Under the pieces are notes generated by a model, which saw only the letters and a list, made by a program, of their open reading frames with translations, was not told the origin of the DNA and did not search any database. The position numbers were made by a program, and so were the translations under genes. A stretch of DNA of 62,943 bases, filler included, from Collodictyon triciliatum (Eukaryota): assembly GCA_043381765.1 (NCBI GenBank). It is 4 parts of 4 records of this genome, joined end to end, with 100 filler letters (N's around TTAATTAATTAA, not from the genome) between each part and the next. Parts side by side here need not be neighbours in the genome. Positions count along the whole stretch, not along the records: positions 28,123 to 55,898 come from JBHJMP010000986.1; 3 more parts are not named here. One strand, given 5' to 3'. Every line of letters begins with the position of its first letter. Position 1 is the first letter of the stretch. Below are positions 3,408-51,224 of the stretch, piece by piece.

Positions 3408-3757
3408 TCCTCTTTGCACGATACCCTTTCTCCTTTCTCCTCCTCTGATCTCCTTCCGAGCCCGTGACGGGCGCAAGGAAATCATTAAACACTACTCGCT
3501 CTTTCCAAAAAACTAGTTCCAAGACAAACTCGCAGTCGTCGGACGGGACGGATCGTTGATCGGAGCCAATGGAGCCACAAACGGCGCGTCGATCGTCGCT
3601 TCTGCTCCACCTGCTCGGATTCACCCACCCGCACCCTTGTCCACGCACTCTTCTGCTGGCGCCGATCGCTCTACCCCAAAAATGCACGCCTTTCTCTTAC
3701 GATGATATAATTATATGTAACATCACCTCATTATCATATACGCACGATCACAAGCAC

Positions 3758-3932
3758 AATCATCACAGCCATCACAATCATCACAATCATCACAATCATC
3801 ACAATCATCACAATCATCACAATCATCACAATCACCACAATCACCACAATCACCACAATCACCACAATCACCACAATCACCACAATCATCACAATCATCA
3901 CAATCATCACAATCATCACAATCATCACAATC
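3758..3932 (+). repeat. 9-bp tandem repeat (CATCACAAT/CACCACAAT)n
   Basis: Directly visible; reads as (HHN)n in the 3569 ORF. Confidence 0.95.
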
Positions 3933-25948: not shown

Positions 25949-27251
25949 CTAGACAGCGCAGTCAGACTTGTGCTTCCTGGCCTTTTCGCCCGCCTCGCCC
26001 TTGACCCTGGAGTAGTAGAAGGCGCCGAAGATGGAGAGGGCGATGCCGAGGCCGTTGAGAGGGGAGATGAGGTTGCCGAAGTAGATGACAGACGCGACAA
26101 TCACAAAGACGCGCTTGAGCGTGCCGGCCACGGAGTAGGTGAGGGGTGCGACCCAGGACATGACGACGAAGGCAAGGATATTCTGCCCGTAGTACGCAAG
26201 CGCATTCACAAGCAGCAGCGACCACGCCTGGTGGAAACGCACGGGCTGCGCCATCAGCGCAAAGAAGAGGTCGGCCTCCCACACGGCCCACAGCGGCAGC
26301 ACGCACAGAAACGCGGCTATGCTCATGTTTGTCTGCAGCTGCATCGGGTGCAGCCGCCGCGTGCGGAAGATGTGCTTGGATGCAATCTGCTGGCTGCTGA
26401 GGATGAAGGTGGAGAGCAGCGCAGCCGCAAAGCCCTCCATGTCAAAGTCATGCTCCGTCAGACTTGCAAGCATCACGCCCACAATGATTGGAATCAGTGC
26501 TGTGTACACGCGTCGGCTGTATGATTCCCGCAGCCAAACTCGGGCGAGAATCACCGTGAAGATCGGCCCGGTGGACTGTGTTGAATGTGGGTGAGGAGAC
26601 TTGTTTTTGTTGTTGTGATTTATGTGATTGATGTGATTGGTGTGATTGGTGTGATTGATGTGATTGGTGTGATTGATGTGATTAATGTGATTGGTGTGAT
26701 TGGTGTGATTGGTGTGATTGGTGTGATTGATGTGATTGATGTGACTGTGCTATGATTGAAACCTTGACAGTGTGCGTAAAGGACACGGGCACGCGCTCCA
26801 AGCTGACTTGGCTGAGGATGTTGGAAAAGGCATAGCCCAGCCCCAGGGGCAGGAACGTCAGAATCCAGTCGGACAGAGAGACAAACGAGATGGGGGCTGA
26901 GCCTTGGCCTTGGCCTTGGCTTGAGCTTTGGCTGTGGCTGTGGCTGTGGCCTCTCAAGTGCTGCGTGCATTTCAGCATGGTCAGGCCGATCAGCGCGCTG
27001 CCCCCAAACTGGCTGATCGGCAGCGTGATGGGCAGATCAATGACCTGCAGGAAGGACTTGTTGATGATGTTCGTGGTCATGGAGCTTCCATACCAGATGA
27101 AGATGCACAAAAGCACAACGCCAAAGTTTGGATTGGGATCGTCTGGTTGGCTGTTGAGAGAAGAAGCGCCGCTGTGTTGTGTGGGATCGGACGGCTGACG
27201 AGTGGTCAACGTGCTTGTGTGCGTGTTTGCCTGAGCCTTTGGCGTTTGCAT
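25949..27251 (-). CDS. SLC35E1-like triose-phosphate/nucleotide-sugar transporter (2 exons)
   Basis: Exons 27251-26763 and 26575-25949: IWYGSS...IINK, SQVSLERVPVSFTHTVK|STGPIF, LIPIIVGVMLAS.TE, PLTYSVAGTLKRVFVI. Confidence 0.92.
26622..26743 (-). repeat. 9-bp tandem repeat (ATCACACCA/ATCACATCA)n in the transporter intron
   Basis: Directly visible; related to the 3758-3932 array. Confidence 0.95.
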
Positions 27252-27691
27252 TTGGTGGCTGGGCGCGGATCCCTGTGAGAAGGCAGACTGGTACGGTCAC
27301 ACAAACACAAACACAAACACAAACACAAACACAAACACGAAGAACAAAGCACAATACCCACCTCGACATAAAAGACAATCAGTACGAGAGAATATAGAAT
27401 GATAACAACGACTAAAGAAAAAGGAGGAGAGTTATGGCGCACAATGTCTGAGGAGCTGCCTACTCGGCAAAGAGCAGAGCAACCACCGCCGGCGAGTTCA
27501 GAGGATATCCCCACACACAAGGAAGCAAGCAAGCAGGCAGCCAGATCAAAGAAAACTTGCGGTCTACCGCGTTGCGTTTGGAGATGAATCAGCATCCCAA
27601 CCTTTGCATAATACACCCGCTTCTGCTTCCATCACGCTCCGCGCCGCGTGTTTCCGATGTTTTCAAACACCGATTCTGCAGGGCTCCAGCG

Positions 27692-28122: not shown

Positions 28123-28380
28123 TTCTCTCTTTTTTCTCTCTTTTTTCTCTCTTTTTTCTCTCTTTTTTCTCTCTTTTTTCTCTCTTTTTTCTCTCTTTTT
28201 TCTCTCTTTTTCTCTCTTTTTCTCTCTTTTTCTCTCTTTTTTCTCTCTTTTTTCTCTCTTTTCTCTCTCTTTTTTCTCTCTTTTTTCTCTCTTTTTTCTC
28301 TCTTTTTTCTCTCTTTTTTTTCTCTTTTTTTTTCTCTTTTTTTTCTCTTTTTCTTTTCTTTTCTTTTTTTCTTTTCTTTT
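28123..28380 (+). repeat. Pyrimidine repeat (TTTTTTCTCTC)n
   Basis: Directly visible. Confidence 0.9.
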
Positions 28381-33740: not shown

Positions 33741-36700
33741 ATGTCGCAATCTCCTTCGGAAGAGCTTATTCGTAAAGTGCGTGCATCCTTTTCCCAAGTT
33801 GACACCGAGGACACCGGGCGCATCGATCTGAATGGATTTAAAAGGGTATGCAAACTCTTTTCTTTCCCGTACTTTTCAATCAATTAGGTTCGCTGTTTAA
33901 CCTCATTCAACCGGCCCTCTTTGTTGATCTCGTTACTTATTTTAAGGTGGTCATGTCCTTGTCCTTGTCATTTACGGACGGGCAAGTGGAAGAAATGATG
34001 GAAAATCTGGATGCAGGTATCTTTTAGTTCAAAAAGCATCCACGTTCATATCCTCCTGTTTGCATATGAATTCTAATTTGCTCGATTGTTTGATTTTGTG
34101 TGTTTTGTTTATTATTATTTTGTATCGGTAATAGCCTGGACATTTTTTTTTCATAAAATGAATCATAGATCAGGATGGTTACATAACCCTGGACGATTTT
34201 ATTGATGGGATATGCTCCATGGTCCAGCCAGGTTTATAATCCTATCGTCATATCTTCTTTATCTTCACACTCCTGATAAAGGATGATATTTGATGCTTCC
34301 TGTGTTGTAACTTTACCCGGACAACTTATATTCATAGCTCCAGACCGAGCATTTCCCATATCTCCCTTTCGCCCAAGAGCAAGAAAATCTCTAACAAAGG
34401 TAACTTGAATTCTGTCGTTTTATTTTTTTAAGTAATGTACCAAATCCATTGAATCAACAGCGCAATACTATCATGACAACACTCACCATCAATATTACAC
34501 AACAGGAACAAAGTGAGGAACTTAAGCGGTTAGAAGATTTCTATGAAAAGGTATCAAGTAAAGGAATCCCGTCATTCTCTCTTGAATTTTAATTATTTTT
34601 TTTACCAGCCATGCAATATGACTACCTATCTCACAGTGTTTTGGTATATTGCTCGTTAATAGCGCATCGAGCGTCTTCAGAACAAATTAATGGAGTCAGA
34701 AACTAGGGAGAGTCTTGCGGTTCAAGAAAATAATGATACGATTATTGAGAATGAATCATTAAGGAGGAAAGTTGCTAATCTTGAAAACAAGAACCGTGAA
34801 CTTGAGTCTGAGGTGTGGTGATGCGCATTAATAGTCAATTATTTTACTTTGATATGCTATTTGAGCGAGCATCACGTCTTCATGAATTAAAGCAAGTTGT
34901 ACAATCATATCAAAGATTATGAGACTTGATACTGAAGCATCCAGACTGGCAGACGAAGTTTCCATGCTTCAGAGCGCAAGTCGAAAGACTATAGAGGACA
35001 TGAAAGGTGTCTTTTTTGTTTTTTGCTCATATTTTCACACCTACTTTTATTACTTATTATTGGCACTGTATGATGGATTGCATAATTTCGCTTCAGTTTG
35101 AAATACTAGCTTTCTGGCTCATGAAAGAATACCCAATCCAGGTCAGCATGTGAGCGAAACCACACTGAAAGATAGGATTAAAGACCAGCTTACTAATGAT
35201 AAAGTGGAGCTGGAAAAAAAAGTCCAAGACATACAATTGAAATTTCGCGAGTTACAACGGACCAATGCGGATGTCAGTATATTGTTATCTCCTTTTTAAT
35301 GGGTAACTAGACAAATACTAAACGATAATCATTAAAAAAAAAATTGCCCATAGTTAAAGTCAAATTTTGAATACGTTGAAATGGAGCGTGAACAAATTCG
35401 AGTACAGTTACAACATTCTACTGTGCAAATCAGAGAACTTGAATCACAAGTACATTCTTTCTTTATTTCATTTCATTTCGTCTATTCATATTTCCAGTCA
35501 TCTTTTAATCACAGTAGTATGATTAAATGAGATTAGGAGTCCTAGTATCTCCTACTATCCTTAGAATTCGTTTATCATGCTGAAATTACCAAAAATAAAC
35601 ATAGCTACTCAAACGCGAGGCAGCTCTTCAAACATGTGAATCAGAAAAGGCCAATCTTGCCCAGAGTGTAAATACGTAAGATTCATTAAAATTTTATATT
35701 ATCATTTGCTCATAAGGTGCACTTAAAGGATTGTTTTTCAATTTCTAACTGCAATTAAACTGCTAGACATGAAGAAAAACTTGAGCGCATGAAACATGCT
35801 TTTCAGGTATTCATACATCAACGATTATTCCTACGAACGTGCTCGGCTGCTGAAGAAAAAAATATTTCCAATTAAGTTTGAATGTATCTGTCGACTTTGA
35901 CATGGGAAGCCTTATTCATTCATTTGTCATAACCATACATATATCTTTTAGGAGAGGATTCATGAATTCCAGAACATGTGTGTCACTAAGTTAGCTGAAA
36001 AGGATACCGAACTGCAGAAACTTAAAGAGGTTGAAAGGAATTATATGCACTCCAATAATCTATCACCAATTTTTCTCGTATTATTATTGTTATTATTATT
36101 GTTATTATTATTGTTATTATTATTGTTATTATTATTGTTATTATTATTGTTATTATTATTGTTATTATTATTGTTATTATTTTTGTTATTATTTTTGTTA
36201 TTATTTTTGTTATTATTTTTGTTATTATTTTTGTTATTATTTTTGTTATTATTTTTGTTATTGTTATTATTATTGTTATTATTATTGTTATTATTATTGA
36301 AAATTGTCAGAAATATGATGGATACTTCATATTGCAGGAAACCCCTTCAAACTCCAAGAACTATGGTCAACTGAGTCCTAATTTTTTTCAAGCCATCCGC
36401 AGCATCCTATCCTTTCTTAAGAAATCAACTATTTCGACCAGGTTTAGCACCTATATATCGATTATTTTATTTTCTCTGCGTCCTGGGAAATTATATATTG
36501 TTATTTTCCAATATCTTTGTGTCGATACCATATACAGTATTTCATGCAATTATGACGCTGTGGTTTATATTGTGGTTGACACATATGATTTCTGGGCTGA
36601 AGAATGACGTGCGATTGAAGGAATTTTTTATGATGTAGGGAGTCTGTTCCGGTCGACCAGAGATGGGTATCATTAGTATCGGGTTTAGAATCGGGTCTCT

Positions 36701-41937: not shown

Positions 41938-42829
41938 CTCTCCTCTCGTGTCCATGTATATCTCCTCTCGTGTCCATGAGTTATTCCCTCCCCTTTCTAT
42001 ATATCTATACTTGTCTGACCCTCTCGCTTTCAGTTTCTACTAATACCTCTCTCTCTACCTCTCTCTACCTCTCTCTCCCTCTCTCTCCCACTTCCCTGTC
42101 ATTAAACTGCTCGCGTTTACCCCTCGCTCTTTGCTACGCGTGATTTTATGTCGGGCACTGTCATTTGTCCCTGGATCGCTCTCATGCCAATATCACAAAT
42201 ACAAAAAACAAAAATCACAAATAAAAAAAATGCTCGAGTGGCGCTGCCAATTATTTCCGCTTTGGGCGATTGCAGCACAACTCTATTGCACTTAATGTAC
42301 TCTGTTTCACGGACTTATTTTCTGTGTATTTTATTGTTCTGCAATACATCTGTTAGAGAAATACGATATACACGTATATATTCCAAAGATAGCCACATCA
42401 TTTTTGGATAATGAACATTTATTGGCACACCCACAATGATATAATTCTTCCCTGCTCATCCTATGTCACAGCTAATATAGCATCATCGTAGCGGTTCATC
42501 ATTCTTTAAAATTGTACGATTCTGGAAAACTAATGTGGAAATATCAACATCACCAATTTTTGAGAAGTCAAGACGGTCGCAGCCTCTGGATATATATTCC
42601 GGATTCTTATTATCGGATGTTCAGGGATGCAAAATGATATGGACATTCCACCACCCGACGTTTACATTCGAACCGCAAAGGGCTTCGATTCTTTGAATCC
42701 TCCTGTCGGATGGGATACACGTCGCTTCGAAAGCATAAAATATCATGTCGCCAGGACTTTGATCAGGAGTTCTGTATATTGCAGCATATCAGTCTCGAAA
42801 AGAGGGAAAGCTCTTGGTCAGAACAAGAA

Positions 42830-43419
42830 CAAGAAAAGAAAAAGAGAAGAGAAGAAAAGAAAAAGAGAAAAGAAAAAAAGAAGAAAAGAAAAAGAGAAGA
42901 AAAGAAAAAGAAAAAGAAAAAGAAAAAGAAAAAGAAAAAGAAAAGAGAAAAAAGAAAAGAGAAGAAAAGAAAAGAAAAAAGAAAAGAAAAAGAAAAAGAA
43001 AAGAAAAAGAAAAGAAAAAGAAAAAGAAAAGAAAAAGAAAAAGAAAAGAAAAAGAAAAAGAAAAAAGAAAAAAGAAAAATGAAAATGAAACAGAAAATGA
43101 AAAAGAAAAAAGAAAAAACGGAAGGAATTGGCCAAAGAGCAAGACACGTCCCGATAGTTCAGACCAAAACAGACCAATTCTTGGATCAGAATGGGATGAA
43201 GCCAGAAACACATCTTCGCTCAGTCTCTTACCCAGCCACACTGTCCTTCTCACAATCCGTACCCAATGCCATCAAACGCCTTCCCATCCTCGGCTTTTGG
43301 CAAAGTCTAAATCTCTAGGAGTCATCCAATCTAATAAGAAAAAAAGAAAAAGAAAAAGAAAAAGAAAAAGAAAAGAAAAAGAAAAAGAAAAAGAAAAAGA
43401 AAAAGAAAAAGAAAAAAAA
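42830..43419 (+). repeat. (GAAAAA)n purine tracts (42830-43118, 43337-43419)
   Basis: Directly visible; source of the K/R/E-rich ORFs. Confidence 0.9.
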
Positions 43420-44076
43420 GTTAAGGGTCTTTAATTGTCGTTTATCGGTCTGCCTGTTGCGTTGTACATTCATTTGCTGCATACGTTTGACACGTTGGAT
43501 GACGACAAGATTTCTCGAAAGAACTCACATGACTAACAAATGCATACAAGACAAAGGCTGTGCCGTCAGTGTGACACGAAGTGATGCTTTCCTTTCCTTT
43601 CCTTTCCTTTCCTTTCCTTTCCTTTCCTTTCCTTTCCTTTCCTTTCTCCTCTGTTCTATTGACGAATCCATGCGCACTGCATATCCCTCAACCTTCCATT
43701 TAACCTCCCACACGTGGACTCTATGAAACTCTCCCAACGTCCTTCTTCATATTCTGTCTGCACTCTTCTTTCTTCTGCAATTAATACTGTCATTCCTTTC
43801 GGTCAGACTTTTTTGTGACTCGGTCTCGTGTCTTTCAGTTCCTGCATTCACACACATATACACATATACATATATATCCGCATATACTCTACTTTGTATT
43901 CGCAGGCGTGCATATATGCAAGTTTACATATATATACATATCATATATGTAAATTATAAACCCTTAAATCACGACTAGGAGTCAAAACGATGCATACTAC
44001 TCGAACGCTCAAGCCTGGCTCAGCTCCAAATCCCACTCTGCAGCCGCAAACACCGATACCCCGACTCTGCACGACA

Positions 44077-47000
44077 ATGTCGGACGATGAAGAACACGGT
44101 ACGCACTTTGCTTGCCCGATATTTCTCTCTGATATGGAATTGTTCATATTATATAGAATTATACATTATCATTATCATTCTTTATCTTAGTCTTTTTTCT
44201 TTTTTCCTTTTTCTTTTTTCTTTTGTCTTTTGCCTTTTTTCTTTTTTCTTTTTTCTTTTGTCTCTTTTCTGTGCGGCTAACCCACGTCTTTGCCTGCCAC
44301 TGTTTGTGTCGCAATGTGACCACAACGTCCTGTCCTTTGTCCTTTTTATACCGCACCAGCGAATATATTTACTTCTATTTATATGATAGGCTCAAAGACC
44401 TTTTGTAAAATACCACTCAATCCAACCCTTTTTTCCCCACACAATCCGCCAACTTCGTTGTGTATGAAAAACATCAACAACAGAAGACGTTGAGGCATCG
44501 GTATGTCCTTTAATGGCGTTCTCTGAATCATTTACCAATTCTTCGGGTCTTATCTTCTCTTTCTTTGGTGTGTAAATTGTATATACATAATATTATGTGC
44601 TTATCTCTAATCGTTTACCAAAGGTTCAAGCCCTTTCGCGGAGATCGAGTGTTGGGGGGCTCTTTAGCAAGTTTGCCGGGTTCAAACCAACAGAGTACCG
44701 ATTAATATCAAAACCATTCTCGACAAATCCAATCATCTTCTTGCTTTATTATATTCCTCCGGTATTGTCTGAATAGTATGAGTGAATAAAAAAACATTAT
44801 GTTTTTTTTTTTTTTAAAAAAAATAAGATGGCTCGTTTTTCTTCGTGAGCTCTGTATGATTACTCTTCATTTTCTTACTCAAATTCATCCATATCATTCA
44901 TAGAAAAAAGACCAGTCTTGGATGTCTCACATTAGCCGATCCTTGTGCGAGAGCAAAAGTATAGACCCATTCACTGTTCTCTCCTCGCTTTTTCATTCAT
45001 AATTGCTACAAACAGAAGTTGATTATCACATATGGGCCATCCTTTTTTTTCTTACTCTTTTCTTTTTTTCTTTTTTAATTTTTTTAGAACAATCCCGTTT
45101 CACTTATGCCATTATTATATCATATATGATATGCAATTCAATACGTCCCTTTTCTTCCTACGTCATCCCTCTTCCATTTTCTTTACAATAATATGGTGAA
45201 AGGCATCGACTCGAATTCCTTCAGTTTTAATATTTCTGTGCAATATGTGGACAGGAATTATCAAGATACTCAATTATAATCTCTTTGAAATATTAGAGAA
45301 TAGACGATGGGTGCATCATCGCATCATTTATGGACCCATGTAATCCTGAGTGTTGCAAGGAAATCATGTCCCGTCTTCCGAAAGCCGTCGAACAAGAAGC
45401 TGCCGATGGGGTTGCTCATTGGATTTTATTAGGTTTCTTGCTGATTTTTTCCACTTTTATCAAAATATTAAGAAAATATTCATTTTGGATAGGATACAAT
45501 GATTTCCATGCGAGTGAAAGAATCCTTATTCCCCGAAAATAAGATTATGCTTCAATTCTAGTGCTACACGTAAATCCTATTTGGTCGAGATTATCTCATG
45601 ACTCAGTCACCCATACATCTAGGCTCCCATCAGAGATTCCATTTGTTGAATGAGTTCAAGAAACTAGCTTTCTATCCTGAGCCTCTGCGTGCTCCCTACA
45701 CACTGGTTGTACACAAGTTTGTTGATTATTATTATTATTTTTTTACGAAATCTTTTCTTATATTGAACTTTCGATATAAAAACTAAATCAACTTTAGAAA
45801 CCCTAGTATTCATCTAGATTGAGTTTATTATCAAATATCCTGTTTCGGCATAGGGGTCATTAAAATCATCAAACTGAATCGTCCATTACAATCTAGGTAC
45901 TTATTCAAGGGCATAAAAACAGCACTTGAGTATATCAAGGTTAATCCGAAATCGTTGAAGAATGCTGCTGATTTGGTATAGTTCATATTTCCGTCGCCTT
46001 TATAGAATCTGCGTTTTTTTTCTTTTACATAAAAACAAAAATAAAAAATGTCCAGAATATTTGAGCACCCTATAATCCTTTTCCGATCTACCCGCATTTA
46101 GTACTATATTTGAATAATCATTTATATTTTTTTTGGAAACCTATCAGTACAACATCAAAATGTAATATCGCCCCTACTTGTAAATAACGGAATGGGCTTT
46201 ATAACCCAGTAGCTTCTCCCTCCTTGTGCTAACTGAAAATTGCAATACTTATCAGGCAAAATACACATCTGTATTTAAGAAACTTGGGGACATTCAATCT
46301 CTGTCCTCATATGAGGCCAAGAAGGCTCCTGAGGATGCACGTTCCATTATCTTAAACCCAACGGCCCAGGCGGTACTAACAGAAGCTCATTCTCTCTTAC
46401 TGAGCCCCGACTTTCACTCTGCGCTTCTTCGTTCTGTTCGAGAGCCGGATGCTTCGGCGATTATGGGGTAAAGTTGATTTACAAAAGTATCTATATACTT
46501 TGCGATGGCTTTTCTAATTTCGCCAATATATTTCCAGTTTCTACTCTACTATTCGCATTATCTTTCAGTTTGAAATTCATTTAACTACGTTTATCTATTT
46601 TTTTAAATGAATTAGTAGCCACTGTGTATTGTCCTTTTTTTTTTTTTAAAAAAAAAAACAAAAACAAAAACAAAACACATAAACTCAATACAGATTTCTC
46701 AAATCGATACCCCGGATACTGAGCTCGTCTTACATTCCCTCGGAGGCAGACATACGTAGCATCCCACCAAATTCTAATTCTTCGTCAAAGTTCTGGACTG
46801 TCCCATTCAACACGTCATGTCGGAAGTATAGGTATGTAAATAAAACACATGGATGGGTGATTCCAAGTTTCTCCATATTACTCTTTTTTTGGCGTTTCTT
46901 GTAAATTTGTCAATAAAAATCCTTCTTATCTGTTGTGTTTTCTGCCTGGTATACCCCAAAAGCTTGGCGATTATATTGCCAAGATATTATAGACATACTT

Positions 47001-48855
47001 TTGCATGCTAAATATGGATATACCTTACCTTTTTCTAAAATACCATCACGCAACTAGGGTTATCGACATGGGTTCCATCGAGTCGAATACATATAGCCTT
47101 ATCTCCAAACTTCGCAAAACGGCGCAAATGATTGTATTCTACGTGGATTTAATGGAGTTTGTTGAATATATTTCCCTATTAAATAGATGGTGTCACGCTC
47201 ATTTGTTTGTATCAATTTGTGCAGTTACTCACGCACCACCGGAGGAAGAAATAACCTAGAGTTGCTGTTCGATGTCTTTGAACATCTTTGTTGGTAAGTT
47301 GTCTTTTTGAATAATCCATACTTTTAGTTAAATATCTGGTTTTGTGATATGGTTAAATTCAATCTTTATATTTTTATTTGGTGATGCCAAAATGAGGCGT
47401 ACGAAAAAAAAAAGATGAATTCCTTTCACAATCAGCCAGTCTCTTTTCTGTATCATTTATATATATATATATTAATATTAAGACAATTAACGATAGTCGA
47501 CTCCAAATAAACCCTCATTATATTCTACCCAAAAAGCAATACCACACCCCTGAGATACATAACACTGAACCACTTTGATTGATTGTTTAGGAATGTTAAG
47601 AAAATGGGTGAAAGTCCGGGTCTTGCTGGTGAAATGGTATCTTTTTTTTTTATGAACAATTCAGCTTCATGTAATTGTAGCCATTCAGTTATATTTGACG
47701 AAAGAAAAAAAAAAGTAAAATAATTAAACCGATTCACTCGATGGGTCTTAAATATTGCTTTCACTAAATCTAATCTAATTTGCTTGTGTGCCTGTTACGC
47801 AAATAATCACCAAAGAATCAAGGTTTTTTATTTTTCAAAAGACAAAAACTACCAATATCTACAAAATAATTTTAATAACCTAATCCATTTATTTTATTCT
47901 GTTCGGAAATGATTATGTTTGGTTTGACACTTTGTCATACCTCCTTTTGCTTTTTCTAGTCTTCATTATATTTCTAAAATATTTTCTCTGTTATCACTAC
48001 TATATATATATATATATATATTAAAAAAAAAAAAAAGACTCAACGACCTTGAACTTAGCGCCTCCATCCATTTCTCCACTGCCCTCCCCTACATCGCCTC
48101 TCAGCATGGAGAGAACAACACAAACAAAGTATCGGACATTGCCACCCATTATAATCGTCTTGGACTCTATCGAGAAGGTGGAGTGTCACCTACCATCACG
48201 ACCTTTTCGTAGCGCATTTCCTGATTTTATCGGTTTGTTTTCGTTTCATTGGTTGCACCTACAACACTTTTATTTTAATTTTAATACATACATTTGATAT
48301 CTATGCAATTCGATGCAAAATTTTAAGCTACACATCTTTCTGCTGTGAAAGTCTTTTTGTCCTGCACTCTCCAAAACATATGGATGGGTATCCAGTCTGA
48401 AGGCGGTTTAAATTACAAATTAAAATACACTTAGGCCCACGCGAGGATATCAACACAGTGCTTCACTTTGTGGAAGCTCGCTTTATGGTTATTTCCAAGG
48501 GTGACTCCATGTTTAGACAAGTCAAGTGGGTGGCCCATACAAATCATTTTGATATAATTTCTATTTACACTAAATCTTGAGTGGTTAGAACAAAACAGAT
48601 ATGGTTTTTTTTTAATTAAAAGCAAAACAACGATGACAAAACACAAGGAAATAATAGTACAAACCACTGAAAACATAAGACAGAAAGAAGTAACACCACT
48701 TTATCCATCCACGTATCTATAGACATGAGCTGCATTTTGTTCGGACATCCGAGCTGTCGACATCATGCCCCTTATACTCAGGCAGCTCTGAACAGCAATT
48801 AGTTTACGAGAGTCTTCGCTCGCACATAATCGACAAAAGCCAAATAATCTCGTAG
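44077..48855 (+). CDS. Highly divergent heterotrimeric G-protein alpha-like protein (pseudo-GTPase), 15 exons
   Basis: Exons 44077-44098, 44484-44500, 44624-44694, 44904-44958, 45297-45432, 45623-45716, 45897-45975, 46256-46467, 46694-46831, 47058-47156, 47225-47293, 47591-47628, 48059-48232, 48435-48525 and 48723-48855 join by GT-AG with no stop. The product is colinear with G-alpha: AKRIDD, WILLG, FLKSIPRILSSSYIPSEADI, RVIDMG, MIVFYVDLMDY, NNLELLFDVFEHLC, PIIIVLD, PFRSAFPDFIG, VLHFVEARF, QLVYESLRSHII. Confidence 0.8.
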
Positions 48856-50257: not shown

Positions 50258-51224
50258 AAACCTTCCAATGGTGGTCGGCCAGCTCCCGATGGAGATGTTG
50301 CATGACTTCTGTGTTTGAGAACTTTGAAGTGATCCATGGGCTACGTGCAAGGAAATGAAGGAGTTCAGACAGTCGCTATTGGTGAGGAGCTTGACTTGGC
50401 ATGCCCTTTGTTTCTTTCTTTCCTTTTTTTATTTTTCTTAATATGTAAGACAGATATCCGTATCAGGCAACGTACCGGAGTCTGGAGTGGCATAGCATCC
50501 ACGTGAAGACAAGACCTGATCAGAGCATTAAAAAAACATCTTAATAGAAAAAGAAAAGAAAAGAAAAGAAAAGAAAAGAAAAGAAAAGAAAAGAAAAGAA
50601 AAGGAAAGAAAAGAAAAGAAAAGAAAAAGAAAAAAGACAACAAGTGTGTAAAAGAAAGATAGTGAGAACGAGAGGAAATATACCGAGAAAAGTGCCGAGG
50701 CAGAGTGGAGTCAGGGCAGCGGCAAAGCCGAGAGAAAAAGTAGACGTGACGCACAGGCCGATGAAGAGAAAGGGGACGGGCAGCAGCTGCGTGGTGAACA
50801 TCCCGAGACCGACCAGCAAAAGACCGACACCTGACGCGTCGCCATAGAGTTGCACATATTGAAGTAGAGGAGAGAGAAAGAGAGACGTAAATAAGAAAAA
50901 GAAAAAGAAAAAGAAAAAGAAAAAGAAAAAGAAAAAGAAAAAGAAAAAGAAAAAGAAAAAAGAAAAAAGGAAAGAAAAGAAAAAGAAAGAAAAAAGAAAA
51001 ACGAAAAAAGAAAAAGGGAAACAGAAACTAGTAAAAGACATACGGCCAAGAGACTCGGACCACAGGATGTACGAGTTGACGGCCAGGTAGAACTGCTGCC
51101 TGCAGGCGTAGAGGGCGAAGAGCGACGTTGCGCAGAGGGCAGCGACGGCACCCACAACCGGCCCACGCATCAGGCCGTCCACCCAGCTGCTTTTGTCCTT
51201 GCCCAGGCTGCCTGCAAAGACCAT
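49756..51224 (-). CDS. TVP38/TMEM64 (VTT/DedA-domain) membrane protein, 5 exons
   Basis: ATG 51224. LPVPF...FSLGF...LGTFLG|GLVFTW, HHWK|IVIVTRLSPLPIGLQNVMLSL, YVVGSLAIIIPEIFVYMLAG. Confidence 0.82.
50198..50256 (+). repeat. (TAGA)n intronic microsatellite
   Basis: Directly visible. Confidence 0.95.

Follow-up and report, generated by a model that had tools for sequence, protein, structure and literature searches.

A G-alpha-derived gene of Collodictyon triciliatum with all five guanine-nucleotide motifs replaced, a candidate nucleotide-free pseudo-GTPase

Pseudo-GTPases such as CENP-M and the pseudo-GTPase domains of p190RhoGAP derive from small-GTPase-like folds and have kept the GTPase fold as a binding module after losing its G motifs. 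In plant XLGs, several hundred extra residues at the N-terminus include a nuclear localization signal and a Cys-rich (CxxC) region. Two reports describe XLGs as lacking residues that are critical for binding and hydrolyzing nucleotide and as acting independently of nucleotide (10.1101/795088; PMC8584482), and the first of these describes them as unique to plants (10.1101/795088). Here, we describe a gene of Collodictyon triciliatum for which XLG1-3 would be the closest functional analogue, its predicted G-alpha-derived domain being, like theirs, probably nucleotide-independent. The gene occupies positions 44,077 to 48,855 (+ strand) of a 62,943-nucleotide stretch, called the window below, in which four parts of assembly GCA_043381765.1 are joined end to end by filler; positions 28,123 to 55,898 come from record JBHJMP010000986.1. 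It descends from the gene of a heterotrimeric G-protein alpha subunit (G-alpha), with which it is colinear end to end, and all five of its guanine-nucleotide motifs (G1 to G5) have been replaced. On balance, we favor the reading that it encodes a G-alpha-derived pseudo-GTPase, the fold of which would have been kept as a nucleotide-free binding platform rather than as a molecular switch.

Within this interval, short open stretches in alternating frames encode the G-alpha-like peptides. A core model of 11 exons (45330 or 45297 to 48855) was built by joining open segments through the GT-AG sites that flank them, with all phases fitting, and four exons upstream of this core also join in phase. These four exons and exon 12 were placed by frame, GT-AG sites, and the contrast in guanine-plus-cytosine (GC) content only. 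The predicted exons are as follows.

Exon 1, 44077..44098, + strand: proposed start codon; donor GT at 44099; GC 0.50 against 0.35 in the next intron
Exon 2 (17 nucleotides), 44484..44500, + strand: bordered by AG and GT, its phase linking exons 1 and 3; GC 0.53; the weakest exon
Exon 3, 44624..44694, + strand: open, bordered by AG and GT; GC 0.54 (introns on either side, 0.33 and 0.29)
Exon 4, 44904..44958, + strand: open, bordered by AG and GT; GC 0.44 (introns on either side, 0.29 and 0.31)
Exon 5, 45297..45432, + strand: Cys-rich N-terminal segment leading into the beta1 remnant ..HWILLG; ends after the first base of a Gly codon
Exon 6, 45623..45716, + strand: degenerate P-loop (G1 remnant SHQRFHL, 45625-45645) and alpha1
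Exon 7, 45897..45975, + strand: start of the helical domain
Exon 8, 46256..46467, + strand: helical domain, 70 codons
Exon 9, 46694..46831, + strand: linker 2 (..RILSSSYIPSEADI), switch I/G2 remnant (46749-46781), beta2-beta3
Exon 10, 47058..47156, + strand: G3/switch II remnant DMGSI (47065-47079) and beta4 (IVFYVDLM)
Exon 11, 47225..47293, + strand: alpha3
Exon 12 (optional, 38 nucleotides), 47591..47628, + strand: phase-compatible; GC 0.45 (introns on either side, 0.29 and 0.26)
Exon 13, 48059..48232, + strand: beta5, G4 remnant DSIE (48163-48174), alphaG, FPDFI(G)
Exon 14, 48435..48525, + strand: alpha4/beta6 region
Exon 15, 48723..48855, + strand: G5 remnant (VRTS, 48739-48750, or SCP, 48763-48771), alpha5, TAG stop at 48853-48855

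Joined, the 15 exons form a single frame of 1,428 nucleotides, with 475 codons followed by the TAG stop, and all 14 introns, rebuilt from the sequence, are of the GT-AG type with compatible phases. No stop codon interrupts the coding frame, whereas the two remaining sense frames contain 18 and 27 and the three antisense frames 21, 14, and 29. Base shuffling of the spliced frame yielded no stop-free version in 20,000 attempts, the mean being 24.2 stops. Furthermore, GC content ranges from 0.37 to 0.54 in the exons and from 0.25 to 0.35 in the introns, all of them included, a contrast that supports the gene model independently of homology. The locus is an intact gene rich in introns, in which 11 exons are well defined and the total is probably 15, and its predicted product would have about 380 to 475 residues.

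The putative start codon lies at 44077, and a second in-frame ATG, which may be the start instead, is found upstream at 43990. Translation is less likely to begin at the in-frame ATG at 45330, since an out-of-frame ATG at 45307 comes first within the same exon, exon 5. In that other frame, ATG-GGT opens a 41-codon open reading frame (ORF; 45307-45429, + strand) some 40 codons ahead of the LLG remnant, which is where canonical G-alpha begins with Met-Gly (profile position 1, against 41-43). This ATG-GGT may have survived from the ancestral start or may be coincidental; it argues that translation of the G-alpha-like frame starts in the upstream exons.

For comparison with G-alpha, the canonical P-loop motif was matched against metagenome contigs, which gave 117 loci, 48 of them with a long ORF around the motif. 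Four of the 48 were dropped for their long C-terminal tails, and the remaining 44 canonical G-alpha ORFs made up our profile; all 10 of those tested against PF00503 match it, with 290 to 472 bits. Against this profile, the spliced model scored 15.7 bits (E value of 3.7e-7 for one target) without exon 12, which can be skipped in frame via an acceptor at 48104, and 9.9 bits when exon 12 was included. The best score among 1,000 shuffles and the reversed sequence was 2.9 bits. The local alignment is colinear across profile positions 130 to 317, and global alignment with hhalign extends this from the N-terminal segment through alpha5, with probabilities of 95.0 and 91.7, E values of 9e-9 and 1e-7, and 336 and 334 aligned columns, at an identity to G-alpha of about 15 to 16%. 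Forty shuffles reached a maximum hhalign score of 11.8 and a maximum probability of 1.0. The alignment includes the helical domain that interrupts the Ras-like domain between G1 and G2, in its place within a full-length colinear match.

The exon-intron structure provided us with a second line of evidence. Among the 73 loci outside the 44-ORF set, 52 canonical G-alpha loci could be resolved, with 119 junctions at 35 codon/phase sites. The recurrent ones among these canonical sites, given as profile codon and phase, are listed here.

Codon 42.3, phase 1: 31 of 52 loci
Codon 154.7, phase 2: 21 of 52 loci
Codon 241.0, phase 0: 14 of 52 loci
Codon 104.0, phase 0: 8 of 52 loci
Codon 56.7, phase 2: 7 of 52 loci
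Codon 197.7, phase 2: 3 of 52 loci
Codon 320.0, phase 0: 3 of 52 loci
Codon 294.3, phase 1: 2 of 52 loci

The 10 core introns of the model were placed through the global alignment and, where available, hmmalign, and fall at codons 43 (phase 1), 78 (phase 2), after 104 (phase 0), 155, 198, 230, and 256 (all phase 2), within an insertion, and at 295 (phase 1) and 323 (phase 2). Five of the 10 coincide with canonical sites in both codon and phase (42.3, 104.0, 154.7, 197.7, and 294.3). The intron after exon 5 interrupts, in phase 1, the Gly aligned with the first Gly of the canonical P-loop, as in 31 of the 52 loci; that after exon 7 (phase 0, profile 104.0) has its counterpart in 8 loci, with an alignment of low confidence at this place; those after exons 8 (codon 155) and 9 (codon 198), both in phase 2, are shared with 21 and 3 loci; and that after exon 13 lies in phase 1 of a Gly codon at profile codon 295, as in 2 loci. 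By a binomial estimate with 35 sites in 1,071 slots, at least five matches among the nine mapped introns would arise by chance with a probability of about 4e-6, and the four that remain without the low-confidence site at 104.0 with one of about 1e-4. These five shared positions and phases, which we take to be part of the conserved intron set of animal Gi-class genes, settle the descent from a G-alpha gene. What the original prediction had read from the sequence, 15 exons in one open frame and colinearity with G-alpha from end to end, withstood reconstruction, global alignment, and comparison of introns.

The G boxes themselves were compared with the consensus of the 44 canonical ORFs, in which 61 columns are conserved at 90% or more. 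At G1, the canonical KLLLLGAGESGKST has become HWILLGSHQ--RFH, with one of nine motif columns identical and a two-residue deletion in the P-loop. At G2, RsRVRTTG is replaced by SIPPSSSK, so that neither the catalytic Arg (now Pro) nor the Mg-binding Thr (now Ser) is kept; at G3, DVGGQR reads DMGSIE (two of six columns identical); and at G4, NKkD (NKxD) reads DSIE (none of three). Depending on the gaps, the TCATDT of G5 corresponds to VRTS.., as the original prediction aligned it, or, in hhalign, to SCPSGS, with at most one of three columns identical and degenerate either way. GxxxxGK[ST], GK[ST], or DxxGQ is encoded by no exon or frame elsewhere between 43,900 and 49,100, and alternative exons therefore cannot restore the boxes. 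With all five motifs replaced and the P-loop shortened, canonical binding of guanine nucleotide is excluded, and the predicted protein cannot hydrolyze GTP in the canonical manner either.

The hydrophobic core tells a different story from the other conserved columns: 16 of 21 hydrophobic conserved columns are conservatively kept, 8 of them identical, whereas only 6 of the 40 others (polar, Gly, and similar) are identical. The motifs LLG, YIPS..DI, FYVDL.DY, IIIVLD, and FPDF.G are all recognizable. This pattern suggests that the GTPase fold has been retained. Both the loss of all five boxes and the persistence of the structural segments had been proposed from the first inspection of the locus, and both stand after comparison with the consensus.

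Some pseudo-GTPases keep nucleotide binding, and the protein might likewise still bind nucleotide through noncanonical residues without hydrolyzing it. In its favor, G3 (DMG) still has its Asp and first Gly, and the P-loop its first Gly. The P-loop, however, lacks GK[ST] as well as two residues, the guanine-reading residues of NKxD are all replaced, G5 is degenerate, and the Mg-binding Thr is missing, as is the Ser/Thr of G1, which makes this explanation very improbable.

In overall organization, the predicted protein follows canonical G-alpha (PF00503) in the order of N-terminal segment, beta1, helical-domain insert, linker 2, Ras-like core, and alpha5, in addition to the five common intron positions and phases. 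It differs in its degenerate G1 to G5, shorter P-loop, replaced switch II, and low identity, in lacking an N-terminal Met-Gly, and in three insertions, by which the helical domain gains about 16 residues, the alpha3-beta5 loop about 28, and the stretch before alpha5 about 8. The second of these insertions is Ser/Pro-rich, is encoded by exon 12 together with 48059-48104, holds four of the protein's five SP/TP sites, and has no canonical G-alpha counterpart in the global alignment. The part upstream of beta1 is acidic and then Cys-rich.

Considering these data, we propose the following scenario. All five guanine-nucleotide motifs have been replaced in a G-alpha with its Ras-like and inserted helical domains, and the resulting protein would act, free of nucleotide, as an adaptor or binding platform, its activity being set by partners or phosphorylation instead of a GTP cycle. 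The alpha3-beta5 loop is an effector surface in canonical G-alpha, and the Ser/Pro-rich insertion in this loop would be a candidate regulatory phosphorylation site. The loss of residues for nucleotide binding and hydrolysis is a feature that this gene has in common with the described pseudo-GTPases.

Several observations weigh against this scenario, and some of them would suit an explanation in which the gene resembles G-alpha by chance and its model is no more than a product of pattern matching. No match to PF00503 in Pfam was obtained for any of 10 exon ORFs or three read-through frames (with X at stops), and a PDB sequence search at E values up to 10 returned no match for a read-through frame and the exon 9 ORF. 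The 9.9 to 15.7 bits on our own profile are weak, the Pfam cutoff for its own model being 48.8 bits. In the profile check suggested by the original prediction, the spliced model scored above all shuffles against the 44-ORF profile, and exon pieces and read-through frames gave no match to PF00503. When all window ORFs with 20 or more residues, 1,885 in number, were scanned blindly, the exon 9 ORF was the only one of the gene to stand out, ranking second with 6.0 bits; the first rank went to an ORF elsewhere in the window, at 57735-57875. Splice-site choice, moreover, was partly steered by colinearity with G-alpha. Expression and purifying selection we infer from intactness alone, and the partners of the protein and the role of its insertion are guesses. 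Chance resemblance is nevertheless close to refuted: the profile and profile-profile scores lie far outside those of shuffles, the alignment is colinear end to end, five introns match canonical G-alpha genes in position and phase, and the contrast in composition between exons and introns is independent of homology.

Searches for relatives likewise weigh on the unfavorable side, as neither an orthologue nor a paralogue emerged from any search with exon 8 or the exon 13 core. For exon 8, a word-based search of longer proteins gave 118 candidates, none at an E value of 0.01 or better; 598 pattern matches in metagenome contigs included none that could be confirmed; and phmmer against 1.84 billion representative proteins returned five matches, all tandem-repeat proteins aligned over the repeat only, none of which fits the G-alpha profile. 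The best ESM Atlas score for exon 8 was 0.89, to unnamed bacterial clusters, and is uninformative. An orthologue search with the exon 13 core produced no candidate. Because the lineage is sparsely sampled and the queries are short, the missing orthologues are weak evidence of absence.

The lack of homologues in these protein, word-based, and metagenome searches, together with the loss of every catalytic motif, could also be accounted for by an unprocessed pseudogene, that is, a dead G-alpha duplicate, unexpressed and unselected, which by chance is still open; a hint of other copies decaying in the vicinity could be seen in the lone P-loop-like ORF at 57735-57875. However, an identity of about 15 to 16% implies long divergence, and neutral divergence to this extent should have introduced stops and frameshifts and destroyed splice sites. 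It would not leave 475 open codons, a state reached by none of the 20,000 shuffles, 14 GT-AG splice-site pairs in compatible phase, an undiminished exon-like composition, and a hydrophobic core kept in preference to other conserved columns. We therefore consider a pseudogene unlikely and retain the pseudo-GTPase reading, with expression of the gene as a presumption.

The original prediction also entertained a decoy kept under selection. In this case, the protein would form a nucleotide-independent heterotrimer in the manner of XLGs and compete with canonical G-alpha as a decoy or sink for G-beta-gamma. Plant XLGs are described as binding G-beta-gamma and RGS proteins without nucleotide dependence (PMC8584482). 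The predicted Collodictyon protein has the N-terminal segment, beta1, and alpha5, all in colinear order. Switch II, which is the main G-beta contact, has nevertheless been replaced, with only Asp201 and Gly203 kept among 14 near-invariant columns (201-216), and this renders the decoy claim doubtful. Furthermore, no G-beta, G-gamma, RGS, or seven-transmembrane gene was found among the 10 neighbor ORFs scanned, a weak point, since such genes need not be linked. Taken together, we regard a G-beta-gamma decoy as improbable and a nucleotide-free binding platform as the better reading.

The pseudo-GTPase reading would place this gene beside XLGs in function, with differences in architecture and taxon. 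At most about 100 to 130 residues precede beta1, with six Cys (at 44, 51, 61, 70, 74, and 75 of the 475-residue model) and no CxxC series, unlike the XLG extension. The host, unlike that of XLGs, is not a plant, a placement taken from one neighboring gene and therefore weak. A separate, convergent origin seems likely. In the literature searched, supplements and the comparative-genomics survey of Anantharaman et al. (2011) excepted, neither a G-alpha-derived pseudo-GTPase nor a G-alpha that has lost all five boxes was found from outside plants. The earlier suggestion of a new mode of G-protein signaling is overstated, because nucleotide-independent action of G-alpha is already published for plant XLGs (PMC8584482; 10.1101/795088).

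A bolder hypothesis is put forward only tentatively. In it, an early-branching protist lineage would have made, independently of plants, a wholly nucleotide-free G-alpha, the switch of which was replaced by a phospho-regulated Ser/Pro-rich loop at the effector face, as a second and more extreme origin of nucleotide-independent signaling by heterotrimeric G proteins. If the gene is expressed and selected, a G-alpha fold can persist, outside plants, for a job that needs no guanine nucleotide. This would bear on how far heterotrimeric G-protein signaling depends on the GTP cycle, and studies of structure and partners would gain, in this protein, a naturally occurring "empty-pocket" G-alpha. The locus also carries a warning for annotation, in that profile searches miss genes of this kind while intron positions recover their ancestry.

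With regard to its surroundings, the window, which holds 1,700 N and has no match in Rfam over its whole length, contains genes for a GT61 glycosyltransferase, ubiquitin-L40, a TPT-family transporter, a PHO80-type cyclin, and COX6B. The nearest relatives of the TPT-family transporter (25949-27296, - strand) are two Diphylleia rotans transcriptome proteins (68% and 57% identity), followed by a Stenamoeba protein (43%) and fungi (about 35%), which, on this one gene, hints at a poorly sampled protist close to collodictyonids.

The ORF at 57735-57875 (+ strand, 47 codons) resembles the beta1/P-loop/alpha1 region of G-alpha (LLG..GE.G.S....KQIKLL) and reached 9.5 bits (E value of 0.053) in the blind scan. 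Motif and ORF scans found no colinear partner exons downstream of it, and it is either a chance resemblance or the relic of a second copy. A second G-alpha-like gene at about 53 to 58 kb was considered and is not counted as a gene, as scans of both strands gave only isolated short resemblances. Between 53595 and 54000, adjoining an assembly gap (54350-54870), the strings LLLLG.., YIPS..DI, and FFLN..E..L occur within 400 bases on differing strands and in differing frames, and we judge them to be due to chance.

Very long simple repeats lie in and between ORFs at 42600-43650, 3700-3900, 26600-26750, 36050-36300, 50300-51000, and 61400-61900. They may account for the small shares of sampled words that a search of sequencing runs gave in unrelated metagenomes; the largest listed share, 0.20, belonged to one possible RNA run, and such shares are no evidence of expression, habitat, or conservation. 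The repeats comprise Lys/Glu-coding AAG/GAA runs, His/Asn-coding repeats, and Leu runs, and an array of the TTCCT type lies just upstream of the G-alpha-derived gene, at 43585-43650.

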